Positions 50,014 to 63,861 of a DNA stretch of 64,000 nucleotides are shown piece by piece. Made by a program: the position numbers and the translations under genes. Below the pieces are notes generated by a model, which was not told where the DNA came from, did not search any database, and saw only the letters and a list, made by a program, of their open reading frames with translations. The stretch lies in the IMG/VR virus record IMGVR_UViG_3300008111_001118; one strand, given 5' to 3'. The stretch comes from a virus (lineage: Duplodnaviria; Heunggongvirae; Uroviricota; Caudoviricetes). Numbering within the stretch: the stretch's first letter is position 1; each line of letters starts with the position of its first letter.

Positions 50014-50097
50014 TGGTGCCCACTGCCGGACTCGAACCGGCACTCCAGAGGAAGCAAATTTTAAGTCTGCCGCGGCTACCAATTTCACCAAGCGGGC
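50014..50097 (-). tRNA. tRNA-Leu(TAA), class II
   Basis: Hand-folded: acceptor GCCCGCT/AGTGGGC, anticodon stem GCAGA/TTTGC with loop CTTAAAA, long variable arm, T-arm CCGG-TTCGAGT-CCGG, encoded CCA. Confidence 0.8.
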
Positions 50098-50100
50098 ATT

Positions 50101-50496
50101 TTATTTTTTATACTTATCACCGGTAACTTGACCGGCACTCATTATAATAACTGGAATACGTTTAATATTCATTTCACGAAATGCAAAGTAACGATGATGT
50201 CCATCAATTACTTGATAAGTGTTTTCTCGTGGAATTCTTCTTACTAGTATTGGAGGTATCTTGCTGATATCTCGTTTTATCTGTTTTTTAATACTGTTTA
50301 TATTTGCTCTAGCATCAACATCTTTAGTATCACCTTTACCGTCTCCTTCGAATCTAGATCGGATCTGATTCATAGGCATTACAACAACTCGGTTGTATTC
50401 GTTTTTAAAATCAGTTACATTGGCACCGACAGTACTGTCACCAGTTTCAGGATCAACGTCTTTGGTTATTTTTGCTACTACTTCAAATATTTTCAT
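50101..50496 (-). CDS. ParB-like nuclease domain protein (about 131 aa from the internal Met MKIFEV)
   Basis: DGHHRYFAF motif of the ParB/sulfiredoxin fold. The ORF as called (to 50553) would overlap tRNA-Leu(CAA), so the internal start is preferred. Confidence 0.5.
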   Translation of the reverse strand: MKIFEVVAKITKDVDPETGDSTVGANVTDFKNEYNRVVVMPMNQIRSRFEGDGKGDTKDVDARANINSIKKQIKRDISKIPPILVRRIPRENTYQVIDGHHRYFAFREMNIKRIPVIIMSAGQVTGDKYKK

Positions 50497-50512
50497 ATAG
50501 TATTTATTATTT

Positions 50513-50595
50513 GGTGCCCCAGGAGGGACTTGAACCCCCACGCCTTGCGGCAAAAGATTTTGAATCTTCCGTGGCTACCATTACACCACTAGGGC
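50513..50595 (-). tRNA. tRNA-Leu(CAA), class II
   Basis: Hand-folded: acceptor GCCCTAG/CTGGGGC, anticodon loop TTCAAAA, long variable arm, T-loop TTCAAGT, CCA encoded. Confidence 0.75.
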
Positions 50596-50820
50596 AAAGT
50601 GTTGTTTAAAGGTGGCATCAGCACTTGTCTAGTACAAATTTATCGGGCCCAGCTGCGTTCAAACAACTATGTGTCTGTTTTTACACCTACGTAAGGACTA
50701 GAATGTTTTTTATCCTTACTCCTTTAAACAATATAGTAATTAGCCTAGCAATAACCTATAGCATATCGCCGGGTCGCGGTCGACTCACTTCCCTTACACC
50801 CCCAAGGTGCAGGCTAAAAT

Positions 50821-50896
50821 TGGTTGCGGTGGGCAGGACTCGAACCTGCGATTTACTGGTTATGAGCCAGTCGAGATGCCGCTTCTCTACCCCGCA
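50821..50896 (-). tRNA. tRNA-Met/Ile2(CAT)
   Basis: D-stem GAGA/TCTC, anticodon stem ACTGG/CCAGT with loop CTCATAA, T-arm GCAGG-TTCGAGT-CCTGC; acceptor has one mismatch. Confidence 0.65.
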
Positions 50897-51397
50897 ATAA
50901 ACTTAACTAGTAGAACAGTCTCGGAAATGGAGTAGTCGCCTACAGCCAAATGGGTCTGTACTCGAAAACTGTTCAACTAGTTAAGTTAAAAGATATGCCA
51001 ATCCTCTTATCACTTTCCACAAACGGTACCGGTTTTTGAACTAACATATCGTTAAACTTAATTTTTGCATAGGCTGAGATTATGCCTTGCTGTAGGAGCC
51101 TTTGACCATTACCGTTAGCCTTGCGAGCCACGTTCTGTCGTTATCCACAAGAGCCTTTTACGGTCATCTTGTATCTCCCAGTGGTGCCTTTTTTGGAGAG
51201 TGGCGTTTCTCTCGTCGCACGTTGCTACTCGTCCTTCTATCCTTCGTCTGCCTTGCGAGCAGTTCACAGTCGCTAAACCGTTACGCTATCTTTCCGAACA
51301 ACTACATCAGCCTTGCGAGCATCCGTAGACCACATTCTCTTGCGAGTGTGGCATTAACCACCTTTCACAACGTACCGGGACAGTCTTTCGCTTTTGT

Positions 51398-51468
51398 TTA
51401 TCAAAGAAGGGATTGAACCTTCGCCGATTCCGTTCAATGGAATTGCTCTACCGCTGAGCTATTTGCGA
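51398..51468 (-). ncRNA. aberrant tRNA-like element (anticodon loop ATTGAAC = UGA anticodon, short variable arm, 2 mismatches in acceptor stem, no CCA)
   Basis: Good D-arm (GCTC-AGCGGTA-GAGC), perfect anticodon stem ATTCC/GGAAT, T-arm GAAGG-TTCAATC-CCTTC, but acceptor TCGCAAA vs TTTGATA pairs only 5/7. Confidence 0.4.
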
Positions 51469-52133
51469 ACCTACTTCGATGTGCTGTCCCAGTTGCTTCA
51501 CGTCTTGTTAGACGCAAAATACAACACACCGACTGTCTTTTGCCTTGCGGGCTACTCAACGTCTTTTTAAGTATCCGGGGCCTAACCCTTCCACTCTCAA
51601 GATGCTAACTTGCCTTTGCTTGCGGGCTCAGACTAGTTAACTACCTGTTAACTTTCAGCATTCGTTAGTTTGGCTGAACAGTGTTTGGGCGCCAACCCTC
51701 TTATCGCTCACCGACCGGCTCTGCGACTATCCTTTCGGACACTATTCCTAACTTACTGCCTACCGCCTTTCTACGGACGGGAGTTGCTTTCGGTACCCGA
51801 GTCAACTCTAGTTCAGGCTTGCTTAGATGGACCATTGCTGGCGCAAGTTTATAGGAAACCTTGCTTTGGGTGCATTACTGCACTTACCCTTACGTGGACG
51901 CTAAGCCGCCCATCTTACTGTGTTTACAACGATATATTGTTTATCTTATCGTCAGTCGATAGACATAGTGGTTAGCATTGCCATTTCAACTTATTGTCAG
52001 TAGCGTGTGGCCCTGTTGTTTCGCTAGGAACCACCCTAGTTACTTGACAGTGCTACTACCCAATATACCTGTGTAAACACAGTGTTTACCAAATTATCAA
52101 AGAGCGTGTAAACAACTTCTTGCTTACTTGTTT

Positions 52134-52162
52134 AATATAGTGCATGTTGCACCAAAGGTCAA
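52134..52162 (-). promoter_or_regulatory. sigma70-like promoter (TTGACC-N17-TATATT) firing leftward into the 1.3-kb ORF-free region
   Basis: Read from the sequence; copy 1 of a duplicated promoter-leader module (see 54979-55008). Confidence 0.55.
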
Positions 52163-52191
52163 CCACTTTTTTATCTTTTTTTATTTTTTTT

Positions 52192-52266
52192 TGGAGCGGG
52201 TAACGGGATTCGAACCCGTGACCTGGTGCTTGGCAAGCAGCCGCTCTACCCCTGAGCTACACCCGC
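52192..52266 (-). tRNA. tRNA-Gly(GCC)
   Basis: Acceptor GCGGGTG/TACCCGC, anticodon loop TTGCCAA, T-arm ACGGG-TTCGAAT-CCCGT, CCA encoded; one C-C mismatch in the anticodon stem. Confidence 0.7.
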
Positions 52267-52313
52267 ATTTTAAGTTTGTAGTGATTATTAAATTCACTAT
52301 GTAGACAATTTAA

Positions 52314-52389
52314 TGGTGCCGGTAGAGAGATTCGAACTCCCCACCTGATGATTACTAATCAACTGCTCTACCAAATGAGCTATACCGGC
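52314..52389 (-). tRNA. tRNA with anticodon loop TTAGTAA (AGT anticodon, nominally Thr; unusual A34)
   Basis: Perfect acceptor GCCGGTA/TACCGGC, D-arm GCTC-ATTTGGTA-GAGC, T-loop TTCGAAT, CCA encoded; one T-T mismatch in the anticodon stem. Confidence 0.6.
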
Positions 52390-53093
52390 AAATTATTATA
52401 AAATGGAATAACCACATTTTCAGCAAATGCTTCGTGTTGTTTTCCTGAAGGATGATCATCTCCCGGTGTAGGAAAGTCGTTGGGCATGTTATCTCTAGAC
52501 CATTCGTAGCAACCCTTAACTGGTACAAATCTTGTCCAGTCTACCATTTCTTTTAAATATTCTGTTTGCATAGTATTGACATTACTCTCATCAAATGTGC
52601 TTTGATTCATATTACTAAAAAAGTATTTTATATTATTTACTTTCAAGTAATTTTGCAATCTTAGAATATTTTCATAGGTTCTGATTAAATCAAATGTGTT
52701 GTTTGTATAAATCTTATAATGATTCGTTGAAAATCGACTAGGAAAACTTGCATTAATCAATACCCATTTGCCTGCAGGATCATTTTTTGGCCACGCTAGG
52801 TGACTGGCTTCGGATATGTTTGGCTTTGATAATTGATTTAATACAAATGAGTTTTCTACATAAAATGATGCTCTGTTGGCAGCACTCCACATAACCCCAA
52901 CTACTATATCTTTCGATTCTACATTGTTTTTGAATAAATCATTAACTTGATAAATTGCACGTCTAGCGATATGCTCATTTCCATTACTGCCCAATCCCAT
53001 TGGGTAATGGGCATATTTCATTTTTTTTGCAAAATGAAAGGGCCAAGTATGATTGTCGTATGTAAATGAGCATCCGCTTGATACAAAGTGCAT
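52380..53093 (-). CDS. hypothetical protein (237 aa) embedded in the tRNA array
   Basis: ORF flanked by tRNAs on both sides; no recognised motif. Confidence 0.5.
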   Translation of the reverse strand: MHFVSSGCSFTYDNHTWPFHFAKKMKYAHYPMGLGSNGNEHIARRAIYQVNDLFKNNVESKDIVVGVMWSAANRASFYVENSFVLNQLSKPNISEASHLAWPKNDPAGKWVLINASFPSRFSTNHYKIYTNNTFDLIRTYENILRLQNYLKVNNIKYFFSNMNQSTFDESNVNTMQTEYLKEMVDWTRFVPVKGCYEWSRDNMPNDFPTPGDDHPSGKQHEAFAENVVIPFYNNLPV

Positions 53094-53185
53094 ATTTTAT
53101 TTATCCCTCATATAGATCTTCGTAATCAATATCGTCATCGTCTTCTAACCAATCGGTATCGGACGAAGTTTGATCAACAGTTTAA

Positions 53186-53262
53186 TGGTCGGAGTGACAG
53201 GATTTGAACCCACGACATCTTGGTCCCAAACCAAGCGCTCTACCAAACTGAGCTACACTCCG
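53186..53262 (-). tRNA. tRNA-Pro(TGG)
   Basis: Acceptor CGGAGTG/CACTCCG, anticodon stem CTTGG/CCAAG with loop TTTGGGA, T-loop TTCAAAT, CCA. Confidence 0.8.
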
Positions 53263-53268
53263 ATATAC

Positions 53269-53344
53269 TGGCTGGGAAGGGTGGATTCGAACCACCAACC
53301 AACGGATTCAAAGTCCGGTACTCTACCAATTGAGCTACTTCCCA
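53269..53344 (-). tRNA. tRNA-Gln(TTG)
   Basis: U1:A72 acceptor TGGGAAG/CTTCCCA (typical of Gln), anticodon loop CTTTGAA, T-arm GGTGG-TTCGAAT-CCACC. Confidence 0.8.
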
Positions 53345-53350
53345 ACATTT

Positions 53351-53432
53351 TGGTGCGGATAGAGGGACTCGAACCCCCACGCTTACGCACTAGTTCCTAA
53401 GACTAGCGTGGCTACCATTACACCATATCCGC
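53351..53432 (-). tRNA. tRNA-Leu(TAG), class II
   Basis: Acceptor GCGGATA/TATCCGC, anticodon stem CTAGT/ACTAG with loop CTTAGGA, long variable arm. Confidence 0.8.
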
Positions 53433-53437
53433 ATTAA

Positions 53438-53513
53438 TGGTGCCCCCAGCAGGACTTGAACCCGCGACCCCCTGATTACAAATCAGGTGCTCTACCAGCT
53501 GAGCTATAAGGGC
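53438..53513 (-). tRNA. tRNA-Thr(TGT)
   Basis: Anticodon stem CCTGA/TCAGG with loop TTTGTAA, T-arm GCGGG-TTCAAGT-CCTGC, CCA. Confidence 0.8.
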
Positions 53514-53523
53514 AAAAACTTTT

Positions 53524-53597
53524 TGGAGCGGGTAACGAGATTCGAACTCGTGACAAGAGCTTGGAAGGCTCGCATGTTACCGCTACACCATACCCGC
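53524..53597 (-). tRNA. tRNA-Gly(TCC)
   Basis: Acceptor GCGGGTA/TACCCGC, anticodon loop CTTCCAA, T-loop TTCGAAT, CCA. Confidence 0.8.
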
Positions 53598-53604
53598 ATT
53601 ATAT

Positions 53605-53680
53605 TGGCGACCTGTACCGGGATCGAACCGGTGTTCTTCTGCGTGACAGGCAGACGTATTAACCACTTTACCAACAGGCC
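53605..53680 (-). tRNA. tRNA-Asp(GTC)
   Basis: Anticodon stem TCTGC/GCAGA with loop CTGTCAC, G73 discriminator, T-loop TTCGATC, CCA. Confidence 0.8.
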
Positions 53681-53870
53681 AAAAGCATCACACACGGCTT
53701 ACAAGTTCCGTCCCACCACTATGTGAAAGGTGTGATGCAACACTGTATACTACGCCGTTCCAAACCAACATCTAGTGTTGATATGCTATTTAAAGCCACG
53801 CACTGCTATTTCAAACAGTTACTCACGATGCTATGCTTACGCTACTAGGAGGTTCACAGTGTGTTTATTA

Positions 53871-53958
53871 TGGCGGAAGCGGTGAGATTCGAACTCACGG
53901 TACCTTGCGGTACGCTGGTTTTCAAGACCAGAGCCATCAACCACTCGGCCACACTTCC
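53871..53958 (-). tRNA. tRNA-Ser(TGA), class II
   Basis: Acceptor GGAAGTG/CGCTTCC, anticodon stem CTGGT/ACCAG with loop CTTGAAA, long variable arm, CCA. Confidence 0.8.
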
Positions 53959-53965
53959 GTATATT

Positions 53966-54041
53966 TGGCACAGGAGCAAGGACTTGAACCCTGGACATTC
54001 GGTTTTGGAGACCGACGCTCTACCAACTGAGCTACACCTGC
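53966..54041 (-). tRNA. tRNA-Trp(CCA)
   Basis: Anticodon stem TCGGT/ACCGA with loop CTCCAAA; acceptor with one mismatch and one G-U. Confidence 0.7.
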
Positions 54042-54047
54042 ATATAT

Positions 54048-54122
54048 TGGTGCGGAATGAGAGGGTCGAACTCCCGACAACCTCGGTGTAAACGAGGGGC
54101 TCTACCACTGAGCTAATTCCGC
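54048..54122 (-). tRNA. tRNA-Val(TAC)
   Basis: Acceptor GCGGAAT/ATTCCGC, anticodon stem CCTCG/CGAGG with loop TTTACAC, CCA. Confidence 0.8.
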
Positions 54123-54345
54123 ATATCACTGTTTACCGCGTGACTAGAAAACTTGCCATCAAAGCGGGATTTGTTAATTGCTTGTTAATCTCTGGGCTTC
54201 CCCGTTAATCTTCAAGTTCTTAACTGGTCTCGGACTGCAACTTTGATACCGTGTTTACTGATTGTGCAGTACTGTTCAAGTTAAACAACTTACACAATGT
54301 TCAACGCGGCTTTTCTAGCCCCTCGGAAAACAGTGATTATATTAA

Positions 54346-54421
54346 TGGTGGACCCTGCCGGGATCGAACCGGCGACATTATGCTTGCAAAGCATACGCTC
54401 TCCCAACTGAGCTAAGAGCCC
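54346..54421 (-). tRNA. tRNA-Ala(TGC)
   Basis: G3:U70 Ala identity pair present, anticodon stem TATGC/GCATA with loop TTTGCAA, CCA. Confidence 0.8.
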
Positions 54422-54427
54422 GTATAT

Positions 54428-54515
54428 TGGCGGAGCGTCTGGGAGTCGAACCCAGTCTACCCTTGCGGGTAGTGCAGATTAGCAATCTGGTGCCTTACCG
54501 TCCGGCCCACGCTCC
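54428..54515 (-). tRNA. tRNA-Ser(GCT), class II
   Basis: Acceptor GGAGCGT/ACGCTCC, anticodon loop TTGCTAA, long variable arm, CCA. Confidence 0.7.
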
Positions 54516-54522
54516 GTATATT

Positions 54523-54598
54523 TGGCTCCTCGTGCTGGGCTCGAACCAGCGACACTTTGATTAACAGTCAAATACTCTACCAACTGAGCTAACGAGGA
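54523..54598 (-). tRNA. tRNA-Asn(GTT)
   Basis: Acceptor TCCTCGT/ACGAGGA, anticodon stem TTTGA/TCAAA with loop CTGTTAA, CCA. Confidence 0.8.
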
Positions 54599-54978
54599 AC
54601 ACTAACTCTACTTACAGCTACACAGAAACTTAGCATAACGACCTCCGGACGGCCCTCTGCGAGTATATCTGTGTATGTGTAAATAAACTCTACTTACAAC
54701 TGCTAACGTGTAGGATTTGCACCTACAAGCGGACCGCCGTCCTATTTGCTACACCGCGTAGTTAAGCTGACTCGAACAGCACACCGCAACCCAACGGACC
54801 ACGGACTCGAACCGTGTTTACTTCTATTCATTAGCATGTGTAAGTAGAGTCATTCTCTACTTACCCCACAATTATCGACTTTCGTCTATGTAGGTGTTGT
54901 TTGAAGTTTCTAAACGAAACAAAACAACTGATCTAAATTTTCAAAGAGCGTGTAACTTGCGTTACTGTTTGTTTAGTT

Positions 54979-55008
54979 AACATAGCGTATATTTTTTACT
55001 GTGTCAAC
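54979..55008 (-). promoter_or_regulatory. sigma70-like promoter (TTGACA-N18-TATGTT) for the 13-tRNA operon and its structured leader
   Basis: Read from the sequence; copy 2 of the duplicated promoter-leader module; downstream leader shares UACACGCUCUUUGA with copy 1. Confidence 0.5.
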
Positions 55009-55119
55009 TGTTTTTTTCTTTTTTATTTTCGGAGCATCTAAACTGTTGTTCTTTGCGTCCTATGTATGTGTTATATAGTGTGTGCCTGTACTTGTCAACC
55101 GTCTTTTTGAACTACTAAT

Positions 55120-58900: not shown

Positions 58901-59449
58901 TTACTTAATCCTCAATTCTTCAATGTTAACGGGCGTGTAGTCAACGGCTTCTACACTCATATTGCGATATGGTCCTTCTGGACTAGGGTTTTGATGGATA
59001 TGTCCGTGGACATTAAGGAATGTCTTTTGAACTGTTCCTACATCACCTTCTGCAACAAAAACCCGTAAGTTGCTAGGATGAACAGGAACGTGTGTTAGTA
59101 GCAAGCCAAATTCAGAGAACATACGCCACATGTGAACTTTGGAGAAGAATCCGCCGCTGCTCAAATACTTGATGTCATCGTGATTGCCCACAATCAGCCG
59201 CTTTTGGCCATGCAGTTTAGGCCACAACTTTTGAAAGTATTCACGGTCGCCAAACATCACGTCACCCAAGTGATATACTTTGTCACCGGGTTTCACACGG
59301 CTGTTCCACTGTTCAACCATGTAGTCATCCATTTCCTTTACAGAGGAGAATCTAGCACCACGGACGAGTTTGCCAGTGGTGCTGTCTGTAAACGTTAGAA
59401 TATTTGCGTGATTGAAGTGTGTATCACTGATTACCCAAATATCACTCAT
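58901..59449 (-). CDS. calcineurin-like metallophosphoesterase (Ser/Thr phosphatase / phosphodiesterase family)
   Basis: ISDTHFNH, GDVMFGD, GNHD and HGHIH metal-binding motifs in canonical order. Confidence 0.7.
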   Translation of the reverse strand: MSDIWVISDTHFNHANILTFTDSTTGKLVRGARFSSVKEMDDYMVEQWNSRVKPGDKVYHLGDVMFGDREYFQKLWPKLHGQKRLIVGNHDDIKYLSSGGFFSKVHMWRMFSEFGLLLTHVPVHPSNLRVFVAEGDVGTVQKTFLNVHGHIHQNPSPEGPYRNMSVEAVDYTPVNIEELRIK

Positions 59450-61791: not shown

Positions 61792-62214
61792 TTAATCATG
61801 GTCATAAGCCTTCAAAAAGTTTTCCATATACTTGCGAATGTTCTCTGCTCCTACGGGATTCATACTATGAACATGATATCCAAATCCCACAGGCAACCGT
61901 AGTTTGTTATCCATCACATGGTCACAAAACCATTTGGCAAAGGTGTAGCCAGTTTTCTCGCCTGTGTCTTTTTCGTAATGTTCGTCTGCCAAGTCATGGT
62001 CAAAACTGATCATAGTGGGCAAGCCATACTTTTCCACACACCAAACAGCATCATCCATGCTGCGGCAGATCACTACGTTTTTGTAAGGTCCGTAGTTGTA
62101 ACGCACATCACCGGGGAAGCGAATGTCATCTAAAAACAGTGTCCAGGTCATTTTACATTCCCATCCAAGCAGCACATTCATCCCAACGAACGTTGGTAGT
62201 GATTGACTTTTCAA
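61792..62214 (-). CDS. hypothetical protein (140 aa)
   Basis: ORF. Confidence 0.45.
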   Translation of the reverse strand: MKSQSLPTFVGMNVLLGWECKMTWTLFLDDIRFPGDVRYNYGPYKNVVICRSMDDAVWCVEKYGLPTMISFDHDLADEHYEKDTGEKTGYTFAKWFCDHVMDNKLRLPVGFGYHVHSMNPVGAENIRKYMENFLKAYDHD

Positions 62215-63307
62215 TGTGATCCAATATCATAGCACGACCGTCACGATCACCAAAACGACCAAACACATACACAGCCGCAAACGGATCGCGGTTCTTGATC
62301 GTAGGCATCCACTCCTGTGCATAACGCTTGCGATCAAGTCCTGACGCAACAACAGTGTTCCAGTAACGATCATACTTTTCCACAGTGTTGTGCAAACGTT
62401 CTGCAAATCTGCGTTCAAAGTCACGCACACGATCTGCCTGCACTTTAGGCAACATAGGAACAACATCATCAACTTCTTCGTTGAGGATCAAGTTCACAAT
62501 GTTACGATCAAACACAATACGATCCACAGTCTTGTGAATACGCACGTACCAGTCGTTCTTGATTTTGCACATGTGACCATCTGCAAAGCGGATGATGTCG
62601 CCTTCACGACCTTCTGCACCACGCTGACGAGCAATGTAGTCAACAAGATTGCCTGCTACACTACCATACTGCGTAACAGTGTTGAACGGACAAGAGATAT
62701 CCATTGCATATTCGCCAGTCAAGTTGTCACGAGTACCAAGATACACAAGGTCTGCTGCCTCATAAGCCAGCACAATCTGGTTAAATGGGCTTACCCACTC
62801 AAACAGCGGAGTTAATCCAAGATCAACCATAGTGCGAAGCCATTCCTTCAATCTGCGGTCCTGAGCAGCAAGCCACGCCTCGGCATCCATAGCAACCGAC
62901 GTCACTCCCATTTTGGTAGCCAGTCGCAGGTGCCCATCAACCAAGATCGGACGGATCATACTACCATCCATCTTTTCCATGATTACATGAGGCTGCGACA
63001 TGTCCACAGTATGAGTTTGAGTCTCTTCACGCTCGTTCACGTTGAAGAACTTGTGGAACGGACGGCTCATAAGAGCACCATCAGGACCAAAGATAAGACC
63101 ACGGCATTCACGACGAATCGCACCGCCCAAGTCGTCTGGGCCAGTCATGTCAAAGGTATCGGCCATAGCCACCACATAGTTGACCACAGTATAGCCTTCA
63201 CGTTCGGCTACGACAAATTCGTCACGGCCTTCTACGTGCGGCAGCACATCACTGATGTGACGGATCAGAGGAAAACGGTAGTTCATGATTTTATCCTTGT
63301 GTATCAC
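62153..63307 (-). CDS. rnlA: RNA ligase 1 (T4 RnlA-like; tRNA repair)
   Basis: ECRGLIF, RPFHKFFNVNE, lysine-adenylylation motif EKMDGSMI (KxDG), NQIVLAYE and KIKNDWYVRIH blocks align in order with T4 Rnl1. Confidence 0.8.
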   Translation of the reverse strand: MIHKDKIMNYRFPLIRHISDVLPHVEGRDEFVVAEREGYTVVNYVVAMADTFDMTGPDDLGGAIRRECRGLIFGPDGALMSRPFHKFFNVNEREETQTHTVDMSQPHVIMEKMDGSMIRPILVDGHLRLATKMGVTSVAMDAEAWLAAQDRRLKEWLRTMVDLGLTPLFEWVSPFNQIVLAYEAADLVYLGTRDNLTGEYAMDISCPFNTVTQYGSVAGNLVDYIARQRGAEGREGDIIRFADGHMCKIKNDWYVRIHKTVDRIVFDRNIVNLILNEEVDDVVPMLPKVQADRVRDFERRFAERLHNTVEKYDRYWNTVVASGLDRKRYAQEWMPTIKNRDPFAAVYVFGRFGDRDGRAMILDHIEKSITTNVRWDECAAWMGM

Positions 63308-63342: not shown

Positions 63343-63861
63343 TCAATCACTGATTCTGTTGCCATACATGTCGTAGCAGCGAACAGCATCGAATCCTTCG
63401 TCAACAGTAGGGCGAACAAAACTATCCATCATTGATTCAATTACATGATCAGGAATAGTTTTGCCTGGACGGCTAGCCATACGGTGCTGCCAATCTTCCC
63501 ACTGGCTATCACCCGCTGGCAAGAGGATGCACTCGCACTCAACACGATAGCCAGCGTTACGCATACGATTAATGATCTTACGACGCTTGCCAACACCAAG
63601 GTTGGTCTGATCCCAGATGACATCCTTACGAAGAGTAACTATCGAGTTCAACTTCCGTTCGTTGAACTCCGTCGCAGCCTTAATGTTTAAAGAAAACGCC
63701 TCGTTATAAGTGATGCCGTTGTCTTCAGCAACCGTATCGATATACATATCGGTGCTGTAGATCCAAGTGTCTTCAGAGATCATTCTCTGAATGAGAGTGC
63801 TCTTACCGGTAGCGGGTAGACCGACCATCACAGTACAAGTAGGCATGTTTTCTCCAATCAA
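63343..63861 (-). CDS. polynucleotide 5'-kinase (T4 Pnk kinase domain only; no phosphatase domain)
   Basis: P-loop VMVGLPATGKST, VIWDQTNLGVGKRRKI and IPDHVIESM align with the T4 Pnk kinase domain; the protein ends after about 172 aa. Confidence 0.6.
   Translation of the reverse strand: MIGENMPTCTVMVGLPATGKSTLIQRMISEDTWIYSTDMYIDTVAEDNGITYNEAFSLNIKAATEFNERKLNSIVTLRKDVIWDQTNLGVGKRRKIINRMRNAGYRVECECILLPAGDSQWEDWQHRMASRPGKTIPDHVIESMMDSFVRPTVDEGFDAVRCYDMYGNRISD

Follow-up and report, generated by a model that had tools for sequence, protein, structure and literature searches.

The window analysed here is the whole 64,000-nucleotide (nt) stretch of the virus record IMGVR_UViG_3300008111_001118 (Caudoviricetes). 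It carries an array of 18 tRNAs on its minus strand (50014-54598; ARAGORN), within which a GOLLD RNA is located (51071-51532, minus strand; Rfam family RF02032, 191.8 bits). The question raised by this locus concerns the role of the long region without conserved genes (54599-54978) that separates the promoter from the first tRNA. On balance, this region is probably the 5' leader of a phage stable-RNA operon (18 tRNAs and GOLLD), organised as an rRNA-operon leader in miniature. Leaders with this organisation were retrieved from about 20 distinct uncultured phage contigs of IMG/VR, which were gathered via the neighbouring DNA ligase and DNA patterns. The transcript corresponds to the minus strand, coordinates are those of the window, and the sequences compared carry L numbers, L170 being the rrnH leader of Escherichia coli.

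A first-pass annotation, made from the sequence alone, had reported a decamer (GUAAGUAGAG on the transcript) that occurs three times and its complement that occurs once. Indeed, exact copies of GTAAGTAGAG were present on the minus strand at 54864-54855, 54697-54688 and 54615-54606, as was the complement CTCTACTTAC at 54849-54840; the positions given earlier (54605, 54689 and 54857; complement 54846-54855) were shifted by 1 to 9 nt. These four were the only exact copies in the 64 kilobases (kb), 0.13 being expected by chance, and none of 100 shuffled sequences reached four. The 10-base-pair (bp) hairpin with the loop AAUGA that had been described was found as well (-13.4 kcal/mol alone), and the leader, of about 373 nt, is in effect free of open reading frames (ORFs), as had been claimed. 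Its sole ORF, of 31 codons (54837-54742), contains early stops in the relatives L118 and L144, and a leader peptide was rejected because this ORF is not conserved. The leader folds far better than shuffled sequences (z = -4.9), and its scaffold recurs in the approximately 20 contigs. The features of the leader are, in the order of transcription:

54979-55007, minus strand: sigma-70-type promoter TTGACA-17-TATGTT; same promoter-to-leader arrangement in relatives
54952-54965, minus strand: boxB-like hairpin GUAAC-GCAA-GUUAC, ending 1 nt before boxA
54935-54950, minus strand: boxA-like element CGCUCUUUGAAAAUUU, with the core GCUCUUUGAAAA at 54949-54938, assigned by likeness to E. coli rrn boxA
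54896-54928, minus strand: hairpin P2, GUUGUUU..GUUUC-GUUUA-GAAAC..AAACAAC, optional in the family
54865-54894, minus strand: P3, an outer helix CCUACA/UGUGGG around UA, the GNRA hairpin GAC-GAAA-GUC and GAUAAU, assigned by conservation
54855-54864, minus strand: strand 1, the first copy of GUAAGUAGAG, which forms the 5' side of the early hairpin, assigned by pairing and covariation
54830-54849, minus strand: strand 2, CUCUACUUAC plus the extension ACAUGCUAAU, serving either the early hairpin as its 3' arm or stalk 1 as its 5' strand
54800-54816, minus strand: T-arm-like hairpin a, CACGG-UUCGAGU-CCGUG, from the comparative consensus
54766-54780, minus strand: T-arm-like hairpin b, GCUG-UUCGAGU-CAGC, from the comparative consensus
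54731-54761, minus strand: small hairpins CUAC-GCGGU-GUAG (54761-54749) and GGAC-GGCG-GUCC (54742-54731), joined by CAAAUA in the block GUAGCAAAUAGGACG
54709-54727, minus strand: T-arm-like hairpin c, UGUAGG-UGCAAAU-CCUACA, abutting the 3' strand of stalk 1
54688-54707, minus strand: 3' strand of stalk 1, GUUAGCAGUU plus GUAAGUAGAG (strand 3), pairing with strand 2
54668-54687, minus strand: 5' strand of stalk 2, UUUAUUUACA-CA-UACACAGA, a C-to-U degenerate copy of strand 2 in which G-U pairs are kept
54627-54667, minus strand: cargo 2 (type D), conserved core GGGCCGUCCGGAGGUCGUUAUGCUAAG, with homologous cargo in L074 and L149
54606-54626, minus strand: 3' strand of stalk 2, UCUGUGUAGCU plus GUAAGUAGAG, ending 7 nt before tRNA-Asn
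54523-54598, minus strand: tRNA-Asn(GUU), first of the 18 tRNAs (ARAGORN and Rfam)

Judging from the promoter, transcription of the leader would start at about 54972.

The boxB-boxA element and the three-strand scaffold

A first resemblance to rRNA operons consists of a boxB-boxA signal at 54965-54935, which the first-pass annotation had overlooked. Downstream of the boxB-like hairpin, CGCUCUUUGAAAAUUUA shares 10 of 12 core bases with the E. coli rrn boxA GCUCUUUAACAA, and the next five bases, AUUUA, which are common to the window and the E. coli rrnH leader (TGCTCTTTAACAATTTATCAG), agree as well; the core of the relatives, GCUCUUUGACAA, matches at 11 of 12 positions. All leaders have CGCTCTTTGA[A/C/T]AATTTAGA in common, about 30-45 nt past the -10 element, and the boxA element is invariant in 29 unique relatives. 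Among approximately 38 boxA sites, 28 are followed within 570 nt by an array of up to 20 tRNAs, and other sites head GOLLD. In some relatives only 27-37 nt separate boxA from the first tRNA, which indicates that boxA is the constant element of these operons. Further, about 19 of the 29 unique sites have a hairpin whose 3' end lies 1 nt before boxA; its stems are unrelated in sequence and covary, and this order of hairpin and boxA is the boxB-boxA order of rRNA operons. The latter contain boxB, boxA and boxC together with a leader-trailer helix, for which an anchoring model has been proposed, and boxA is necessary and sufficient for the assembly of the rrn antitermination complex (PMC10250234). 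In addition, CRISPR transcripts, which are long and untranslated, are shielded from Rho by boxA (PMC7665894). A literature search revealed no publication that connects boxA with GOLLD or with the tRNA arrays of phages.

A second resemblance resides in a scaffold of three strands, in which strand 2 pairs alternatively with strand 1 (10 bp; early hairpin 1:2) or with strand 3, thus forming a stalk (2:3) around a variable cargo RNA. This stalk comprises an outer helix of 11 bp, a conserved 2x2 internal loop and an inner helix of 7-9 bp whose sequence varies freely; ACAU(R) follows strand 2, and (Y)AG(Y)U stands just before strand 3. In a fixed-length alignment (A1) of 21 instances from about 17 contigs, pairing extended to 98.2% of the 399 cells of the stalk (slid controls, 30-51%) and to 94.3% of the cells of the early hairpin (slid controls, 36-61%). 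Double changes were seen at 11 of the 19 stalk pairs and at 4 of the 10 pairs of the early hairpin. The counts for the 10-mer pairs are inflated, since these instances were located by complementarity, the inner-stalk columns being unbiased. The 16 G-U against 1 A-C combination in the stalk indicate that it pairs in the RNA of the minus strand. The internal loop was of the type CA/GY (CA/GU or CA/GC) in 19 of the 21 instances. The early hairpin has a loop of 3 to 39 nt, into which a covarying hairpin with an ACCAA loop is inserted in seven relatives. Moreover, a second allele of the strands, GAAAACAGAG/CUCUGUUUUC, i.e. GAAAACAGA(G/A) with (C/U)UCUGUUUUC, differs at three positions, which are compensated in every copy.

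When growing transcripts were folded, the early hairpin was part of every minimum-energy structure until strand 3 was made, from which point the stalk replaced it. When one or the other pairing was imposed, the stalk state proved more stable by 3.3-12.2 kcal/mol in all 19 relatives, each in a single-cassette context. The extension ACAUGCUAAU lies outside the early hairpin and is complementary to the first-made part of the 3' strand, a layout that would correspond to the geometry of toehold strand displacement. Of the earlier suggestion of a conformational switch or attenuator, the existence of two mutually exclusive pairings, both covarying, is supported. The attenuator was rejected: the minus strand of 54599-55010 contains no terminator-like site, i.e. 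no terminator hairpin with a U-tract and only UUUAU after the stalk, and the stalk state is always more stable. Similarly, the complement had been thought able to pair with either downstream decamer. Pairing with copy 2 is borne out by the complementary extension, but copy 3 is not an equal partner, because stalk 2 possesses its own 5' strand UUUAUUUACA.

Between boxA and the scaffold, L081 has ACAUC-GUAA-GAUGU in place of the upper stem of P2, and L144 and L166 have different sequences there that also pair. The P3 motif is kept in all eight aligned relatives, with double changes at three pairs of its outer helix. P3 (outer helix, UA, GAC-GNAA-GUC and GAUAAU) resembles CUUAA-CGUC-GCAA-GACG-AAAAAU near helix hA of E. 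coli rrnH (L170, about 355-390). The E. coli boxA-boxC spacer contains a possible mini-hairpin, CAGA-CAA-UCUG, which overlaps the start of boxC and echoes the ACAGA...UCUGU core of the second allele. These sequence likenesses may reflect descent from a host rrn leader or coincidence.

Cassettes, cargo RNAs and T-arm-like hairpins

Each downstream decamer forms the 3' strand of a stalk of about 20 bp around a cargo, an arrangement that had escaped the first-pass annotation. The window contains two such cassettes in tandem, with cargo 1 carrying three T-loop hairpins and cargo 2 being of type D, and every cassette ends 4-7 nt before the 5' end of a tRNA. A comparison of the modules of the window, L074 and L081 revealed that whole modules are present or absent, with breakpoints at the repeats; L074 lacks cargo 1 and L081 lacks cargo 2. 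At least six unrelated types of cargo are swapped among cassettes, half of the cassettes having no T-loop, and 10 of the 20 cassettes of relatives carry one to three T-arm-like hairpins. When unrelated loci were scanned with a rule-based cassette definition, two matches in 345 kb were found.

Two T-arm-like hairpins had been noticed in cargo 1 at first; both are present, and a third one occurs at 54727-54709. The alignment of five homologues gave the consensus order stalk, T-arm a, T-arm b, CUAC/GUAG, GGAC/GUCC and T-arm c. The sequences conform to the T-loop motif (a stem of 4-6 bp and a 7-nt loop U-U-C-R-A-N-Y), the T-loops of the homologues of cargo 1 remaining U-U-C-G-A-N-U. The loop of hairpin c is a variant (UGCAAAU), of which the homologues have canonical loops, namely UGCAGG-UUCGACU-CCUGCA in L118 and GUAGG-UUCGACU-CCUAC in L119. 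The stem of hairpin b covaries at three of its four pairs (UGGG/CCCA, GAAGG/CCUUC, AAAGG/CCUUU), its T-loop being kept, and the block GUAGCAAAUAGGACG recurs unchanged in L118 and L119 and almost unchanged in L081 and L144. Hairpins a to c are the sole well-formed T-arm-like hairpins outside tRNA genes in the 5-kb tRNA/GOLLD region; the other non-tRNA matches on the minus strand of the 64 kb are four weak ones with a UGC loop, located elsewhere. In the single-sequence minimum free energy structure of cargo 1, T-arm a is not formed and CCGUGGUCC pairs with GGACGGCGG; the comparative consensus was preferred. Because the loops are conserved, the stems covary and such hairpins occur in 10 of the 20 cassettes of relatives, the T-arm-like hairpins are, as judged from these sequences, selected elements and not decaying ones, and the tRNA relics proposed before were abandoned. 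As had also been suggested, the hairpins may attract RNase P, RNase Z or proteins that bind T-loops. A link between ctctgcgag in cargo 2 and the tgcgag family of the 51-kb region found no support, because this motif, present at 54655-54663, is not conserved in the homologous cargo of L074 and L149 and the tgcgag repeats of GOLLD are C-GCAA-G tetraloop hairpins.

Other modules were observed in and around the arrays. Cassettes with the same stalk alleles occur away from boxA, directly after GOLLD, as tandem pairs or in mid-array (L001 7195-7315, L014 1-230, L153 and L158); some of these lack strand 1, and each is located immediately 5' of a tRNA. A conserved non-coding module of about 260 nt is found between the last decamer and tRNA-Asn in L074 (244-506) and L081 (6931-7200), and after the cassette in L169. 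The copies of L074 and L081 share 77% identity; the window lacks this module, and no Rfam family reached its gathering threshold on it. Within the array of the window, the spacer between tRNA-Ala and tRNA-Val (54123-54345, 223 nt, minus strand) folds far better than shuffled sequences (z = -5.0), and its ends are closed by a 10-bp helix of AUCACUGUUU (54337-54328) with AAACAGUGAU (54134-54125), so that, in this folding model, it would be another stalk-closed module inside the array. The Asp-Ser spacer (53681-53870) is not more structured than shuffled sequences (z = -0.1).

Known systems, proposed mechanism and rival explanations

The leader resembles an rRNA operon leader (PMC10250234) in the order of promoter, hairpin, boxA, 5' strand, enclosed RNA, 3' strand and tRNA, in its boxA core (10-11 of 12 bases) and in a long-range helix that is backed by covariation. 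Indeed, the stalk has the properties of a leader-trailer helix, that is, a covarying long-range pairing of at least about 17 bp around a structured RNA. The rrn leader too has competing local helices (h0). With regard to boxC (UCUGUGUGGG), the likeness is partial: strand 2 starts with UCUGU, as boxC does, in the second phage allele, the allele of the window being CUCUACUUAC. The differences concern the cargo, which is of variable identity and 40-130 nt long instead of being 16S rRNA, the length of the stalk (about 20 bp versus 25-40 bp) and the distance from boxA to the 5' strand (24-130 nt versus a fixed 18-19 nt between boxA and boxC of rrn). Further, the phage leader has a full-length upstream competitor strand and a near-invariant outer stalk, and is phage-encoded.

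Other known systems share only part of these features. As in CRISPR-array boxA leaders (PMC7665894) and other targets of the Nus complex, boxA stands at the start of a transcript that is long, untranslated and rich in repeats and on which Rho would otherwise act; those leaders lack the stalk/cargo scaffold, and here tRNAs and GOLLD would be protected, in a phage. Lambdoid nut sites (boxA, boxB and protein N) are phage-encoded too and combine boxA with an adjacent hairpin. However, the hairpin precedes boxA in the present leader, as in rrn, and an N-like protein was not identified; moreover, the early hairpin lies downstream of boxA, and N-type loop recognition is unlikely because its loop is not conserved and lengths of 3-39 nt are tolerated. 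The T-arm-like hairpins correspond to tRNA T-arms in their 4-6-bp stems and U-U-C-R-A-N-Y loops, and YrlA tRNA-like RNAs (PMC4201824) similarly have a long closing helix of their 5' and 3' ends and have tRNAs and RNA-repair genes as neighbours. In contrast to both, the cargo lacks a D-arm, an anticodon arm and a cloverleaf, and has up to three T-arms per domain. A YrlA/Ro system was considered and rejected, as RF02553 gave no match on the leader and no TROVE gene was found in the 20 ORFs scanned, which are part of the ORF set. The sole GNCGAA (a motif of the Rsr-binding type) is the non-conserved GNRA loop of P3. RNase P defines the 3' ends of non-tRNA RNAs upstream of tRNAs or tRNA-like elements, as is the case for MALAT1/mascRNA and for RNAs derived from tRNA-operon spacers; by analogy, the structured RNA found here immediately 5' of a tRNA would obtain its 3' end through tRNA 5' processing.

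From the observed structures and their conservation, we infer, with moderate confidence, a mechanism that combines Nus-type antitermination with leader-trailer stalks that fold, protect and release cargo RNAs, the upstream decamer being a transient guard. A first step would involve the hairpin and boxA (CGCUCUUUGAAAAUUUA) just past the promoter, which may recruit a host antitermination complex based on NusB/NusE, enabling RNA polymerase to travel through about 5 kb of untranslated RNA and escape termination by Rho. Secondly, CUCUACUUAC-ACAUGCUAAU would serve as the 5' strand of a leader-trailer-type stalk, whose structure is backed by covariation, enclosing a small structured cargo RNA. Thirdly, the upstream GUAAGUAGAG would pair with this 5' strand once made, as in the computed folding order, and so guard against mispairing while the cargo folds, until the inner part of the emerging 3' strand binds the free extension and drives out the upstream copy, so that the more stable stalk results. 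Lastly, because the cassettes end 4-7 nt before a tRNA, cleavage by RNase P at the tRNA 5' end may free the leader or cargo with a stalk-protected 3' end, which would be set by the 5' end of tRNA-Asn for the released leader; RNase III-type cleavage in the stalk is possible too. In that case, the cargo RNAs, the T-loop domain among them, would be stable small RNAs of the phage.

Several observations weigh against this mechanism. The E. coli boxA 16-mer, searched with at most 3 mismatches, matched two sites in the window only, in this leader and at 52105-52090, which is no more than chance (1.7 expected). Both matches are placed alike, behind the two stable-RNA promoters and about 30-45 nt past the -10 element. 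The case for boxA rests on position and conservation; the identical placement and the invariance in 29 unique relatives are not due to chance. The early hairpin shows a weaker RNA-level signature than the stalk, with 8 G-U against 5 A-C combinations, in addition to the inflation of the pair counts mentioned above. In the two-cassette full leader of the window, the two conformations differ by only 2.3 kcal/mol, and an equilibrium switch may operate there. Finally, the outer 11 bp and the CA/GY loop are near-invariant (two alleles), even in cassettes without strand 1, with the neighbouring ligases being only about 70% identical. This invariance exceeds what helix formation asks for and may reflect a sequence-specific factor or cassette mobility.

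The small energy difference in the full leader is also what a regulated switch sensing a ligand, a protein or a tRNA would lead one to expect, in which the early hairpin and the stalk coexist and a ligand or factor sets their balance, which in turn governs how the downstream tRNAs are processed or expressed. This would be the conformational switch of the first-pass annotation, taken in a regulatory sense. Conservation and covariation are seen for both pairings, and a T-loop-rich cargo is located between the competing strands; double T-loops can dock tRNA elbows in T-box RNAs and RNase P. Such a switch would, however, have no terminator or ribosome-binding site to act on, and in each of the 19 contexts with a single cassette the stalk has an advantage of 3-12 kcal/mol. 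Ligand sensing in particular is improbable because the cargo is interchangeable: it is not conserved as a sensor, there being at least six unrelated types and half of the cassettes lacking a T-loop. A regulated switch is hence quite unlikely. The near-invariant outer stalk, far more conserved than a plain helix needs, would suit an element acting at the DNA level, with the decamers as terminal inverted repeats or recombination sites of small mobile cassettes (miniature inverted-repeat transposable element, integron cassette or homing target) that would move cargo modules between the tRNA arrays of phages, and RNA pairing as incidental. The same flanks do surround unrelated cargos in the leader, after GOLLD and in mid-array, and the module breakpoints of the window, L074 and L081 fall exactly at the repeats, although recombination at repeats may follow from conservation and not cause it. 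The 16 to 1 excess of G-U over A-C in the stalk fits RNA pairing on one strand, the degenerate second 5' strands keep G-U pairing, and the inner stalk covaries freely, as RNA helices do. Moreover, an arm spacing of 3-39 nt in the early hairpin is unfit for a dimeric DNA-binding site, and neither target-site duplications nor a transposase was seen. A purely DNA-level element is thus unlikely; given the inverted repeats around variable cargo, cassette mobility may contribute.

Functionless, decaying remnants of tRNA genes or duplications in a fast-evolving array would account for the resemblance of T-arm b to the T-arm of the adjacent tRNA-Asn (GCUGG-UUCGAGC-CCAGC) and for the highly rearranged arrays of the relatives. 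This explanation is very improbable, since it conflicts with the T-loops kept and the stems covarying across five divergent homologues, with hairpins 35-55 nt apart, closer than tRNA spacing, with a fold far more stable than that of shuffled sequences (z = -4.9) and with the recurrence of the scaffold in about 20 contigs. In addition, neither ARAGORN nor the Rfam tRNA model detected a tRNA or tRNA remnant in 54599-54978, even at E-values up to 10. Returning to the antitermination and leader-trailer mechanism, a bolder version of it is tentative and rather doubtful, namely that the scaffold is a generic phage expression-and-release cassette for small non-coding RNAs in tRNA arrays and GOLLD, with a switchable, sequence-specific stalk read by a phage or host factor and with cargos that include a new class with up to three T-loops. 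Multi-T-loop cargos could mimic tRNA elbows or T-arms, thereby recruiting RNase P, TruB, TrmA or the CCA-adding enzyme to the nascent array, or could titrate host tRNA-targeting defence nucleases.

If the proposed mechanism is true, large phages borrow the antitermination and leader-trailer logic of host rRNA for long untranslated operons (tRNA arrays and GOLLD), and boxA would give concrete, testable access to the way in which GOLLD is produced. The scaffold, which is modular and conserved and has evolutionary support for both of its mutually exclusive helices, would be a natural device for co-transcriptional strand displacement. The candidate small phage RNAs, including an orphan multi-T-loop domain, lie beside tRNA-repair genes and may bear on the phage-host conflict over tRNAs.

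The GOLLD leader, relatives and neighbouring genes

A paralogous leader heads the GOLLD RNA of the window:

52073-52162, minus strand: paralogous leader heading GOLLD, with a promoter (52162-52134), a boxB-like hairpin (52127-52108) and a boxA core (52105-52094)
51920-51937, minus strand: 3' strand of its stalk, AUAUAUC-GU-UGUAAACAC, directly before the conserved GOLLD start AGUAAGAUGGGCGG

This leader contains a third allele of the strands (GUAAACAC as strand 1, 52089-52082, and GUGUUUAC as strand 2, 52080-52073), and its stalk-closed first domain spans 52089-51920. The promoter type, hairpin, boxA and stalk-closed first domain of the tRNA leader are thus also found at the head of GOLLD (52162-51920), whose transcription, to judge from this likeness in sequence, seems to be under the boxA control that applies to the tRNA array. 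The model RF02032 covers the 3' region of GOLLD only (PMC12286853). The tRNA leader differs from GOLLD in lacking this conserved 3' region and any match to RF02032, which matches 51071-51532 only. A tRNA-Ser(UGA) is embedded in GOLLD at 51396-51469.

Protein comparisons placed the phage near Alishewanella and Sinorhizobium myoviruses, although only distantly. A blastn search of the leader against 50,697 records of cultured phages, in near and distant modes, gave no match, and a 48-nt boxA-leader probe gave chance matches only among cultured phages. Likewise, the 127-amino-acid ORF upstream of the leader, used as a probe, retrieved no relatives among viral contigs. A metagenome scan with the hairpin pattern returned 35 matches, of which L110 (98.6% identical to L081) was the only real one, the others being unrelated palindromes. 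The 20 matches of a genome scan with GGTGTAGCAAATNGGACG were all due to chance, in coding or unrelated DNA, about 70 being expected by chance. No Rfam family covers the scaffold (leader at E-values up to 10, six relatives at E-values up to 1), the only overlap being tRNA-Sec on the cargo of L166, with 27 bits versus a gathering score of 47. The leader family is therefore absent from Rfam and from cultured phage genomes, and it can be searched for and modelled from the instances listed.

The tRNA arrays of the relatives are highly rearranged and contain further RNA motifs already described from phages. A manA-like RNA was found in the tRNA array of L118 (5249-5457; 54.8 bits versus a gathering score of 55.2), as was a skipping-rope RNA in that of L146 (2726-2843; 43.7 bits versus a gathering score of 36.7). 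In the window, genes for an RNA ligase of the T4 Rnl1 type, an AAA_33 kinase-like protein and a metallophosphoesterase are located just upstream of the tRNA operon (58901-59449, 62153-63307 and 63343-63861, minus strand), which suggests a tRNA-repair set beside the array. Inside the tRNA array, the minus strand contains ORFs for a DUF6071 protein of 237 amino acids (52380-53093) and a ParB_N-domain protein of 150 amino acids (50101-50553), the 5' part of the latter ORF overlapping tRNA-Leu(CAA) (50512-50595).

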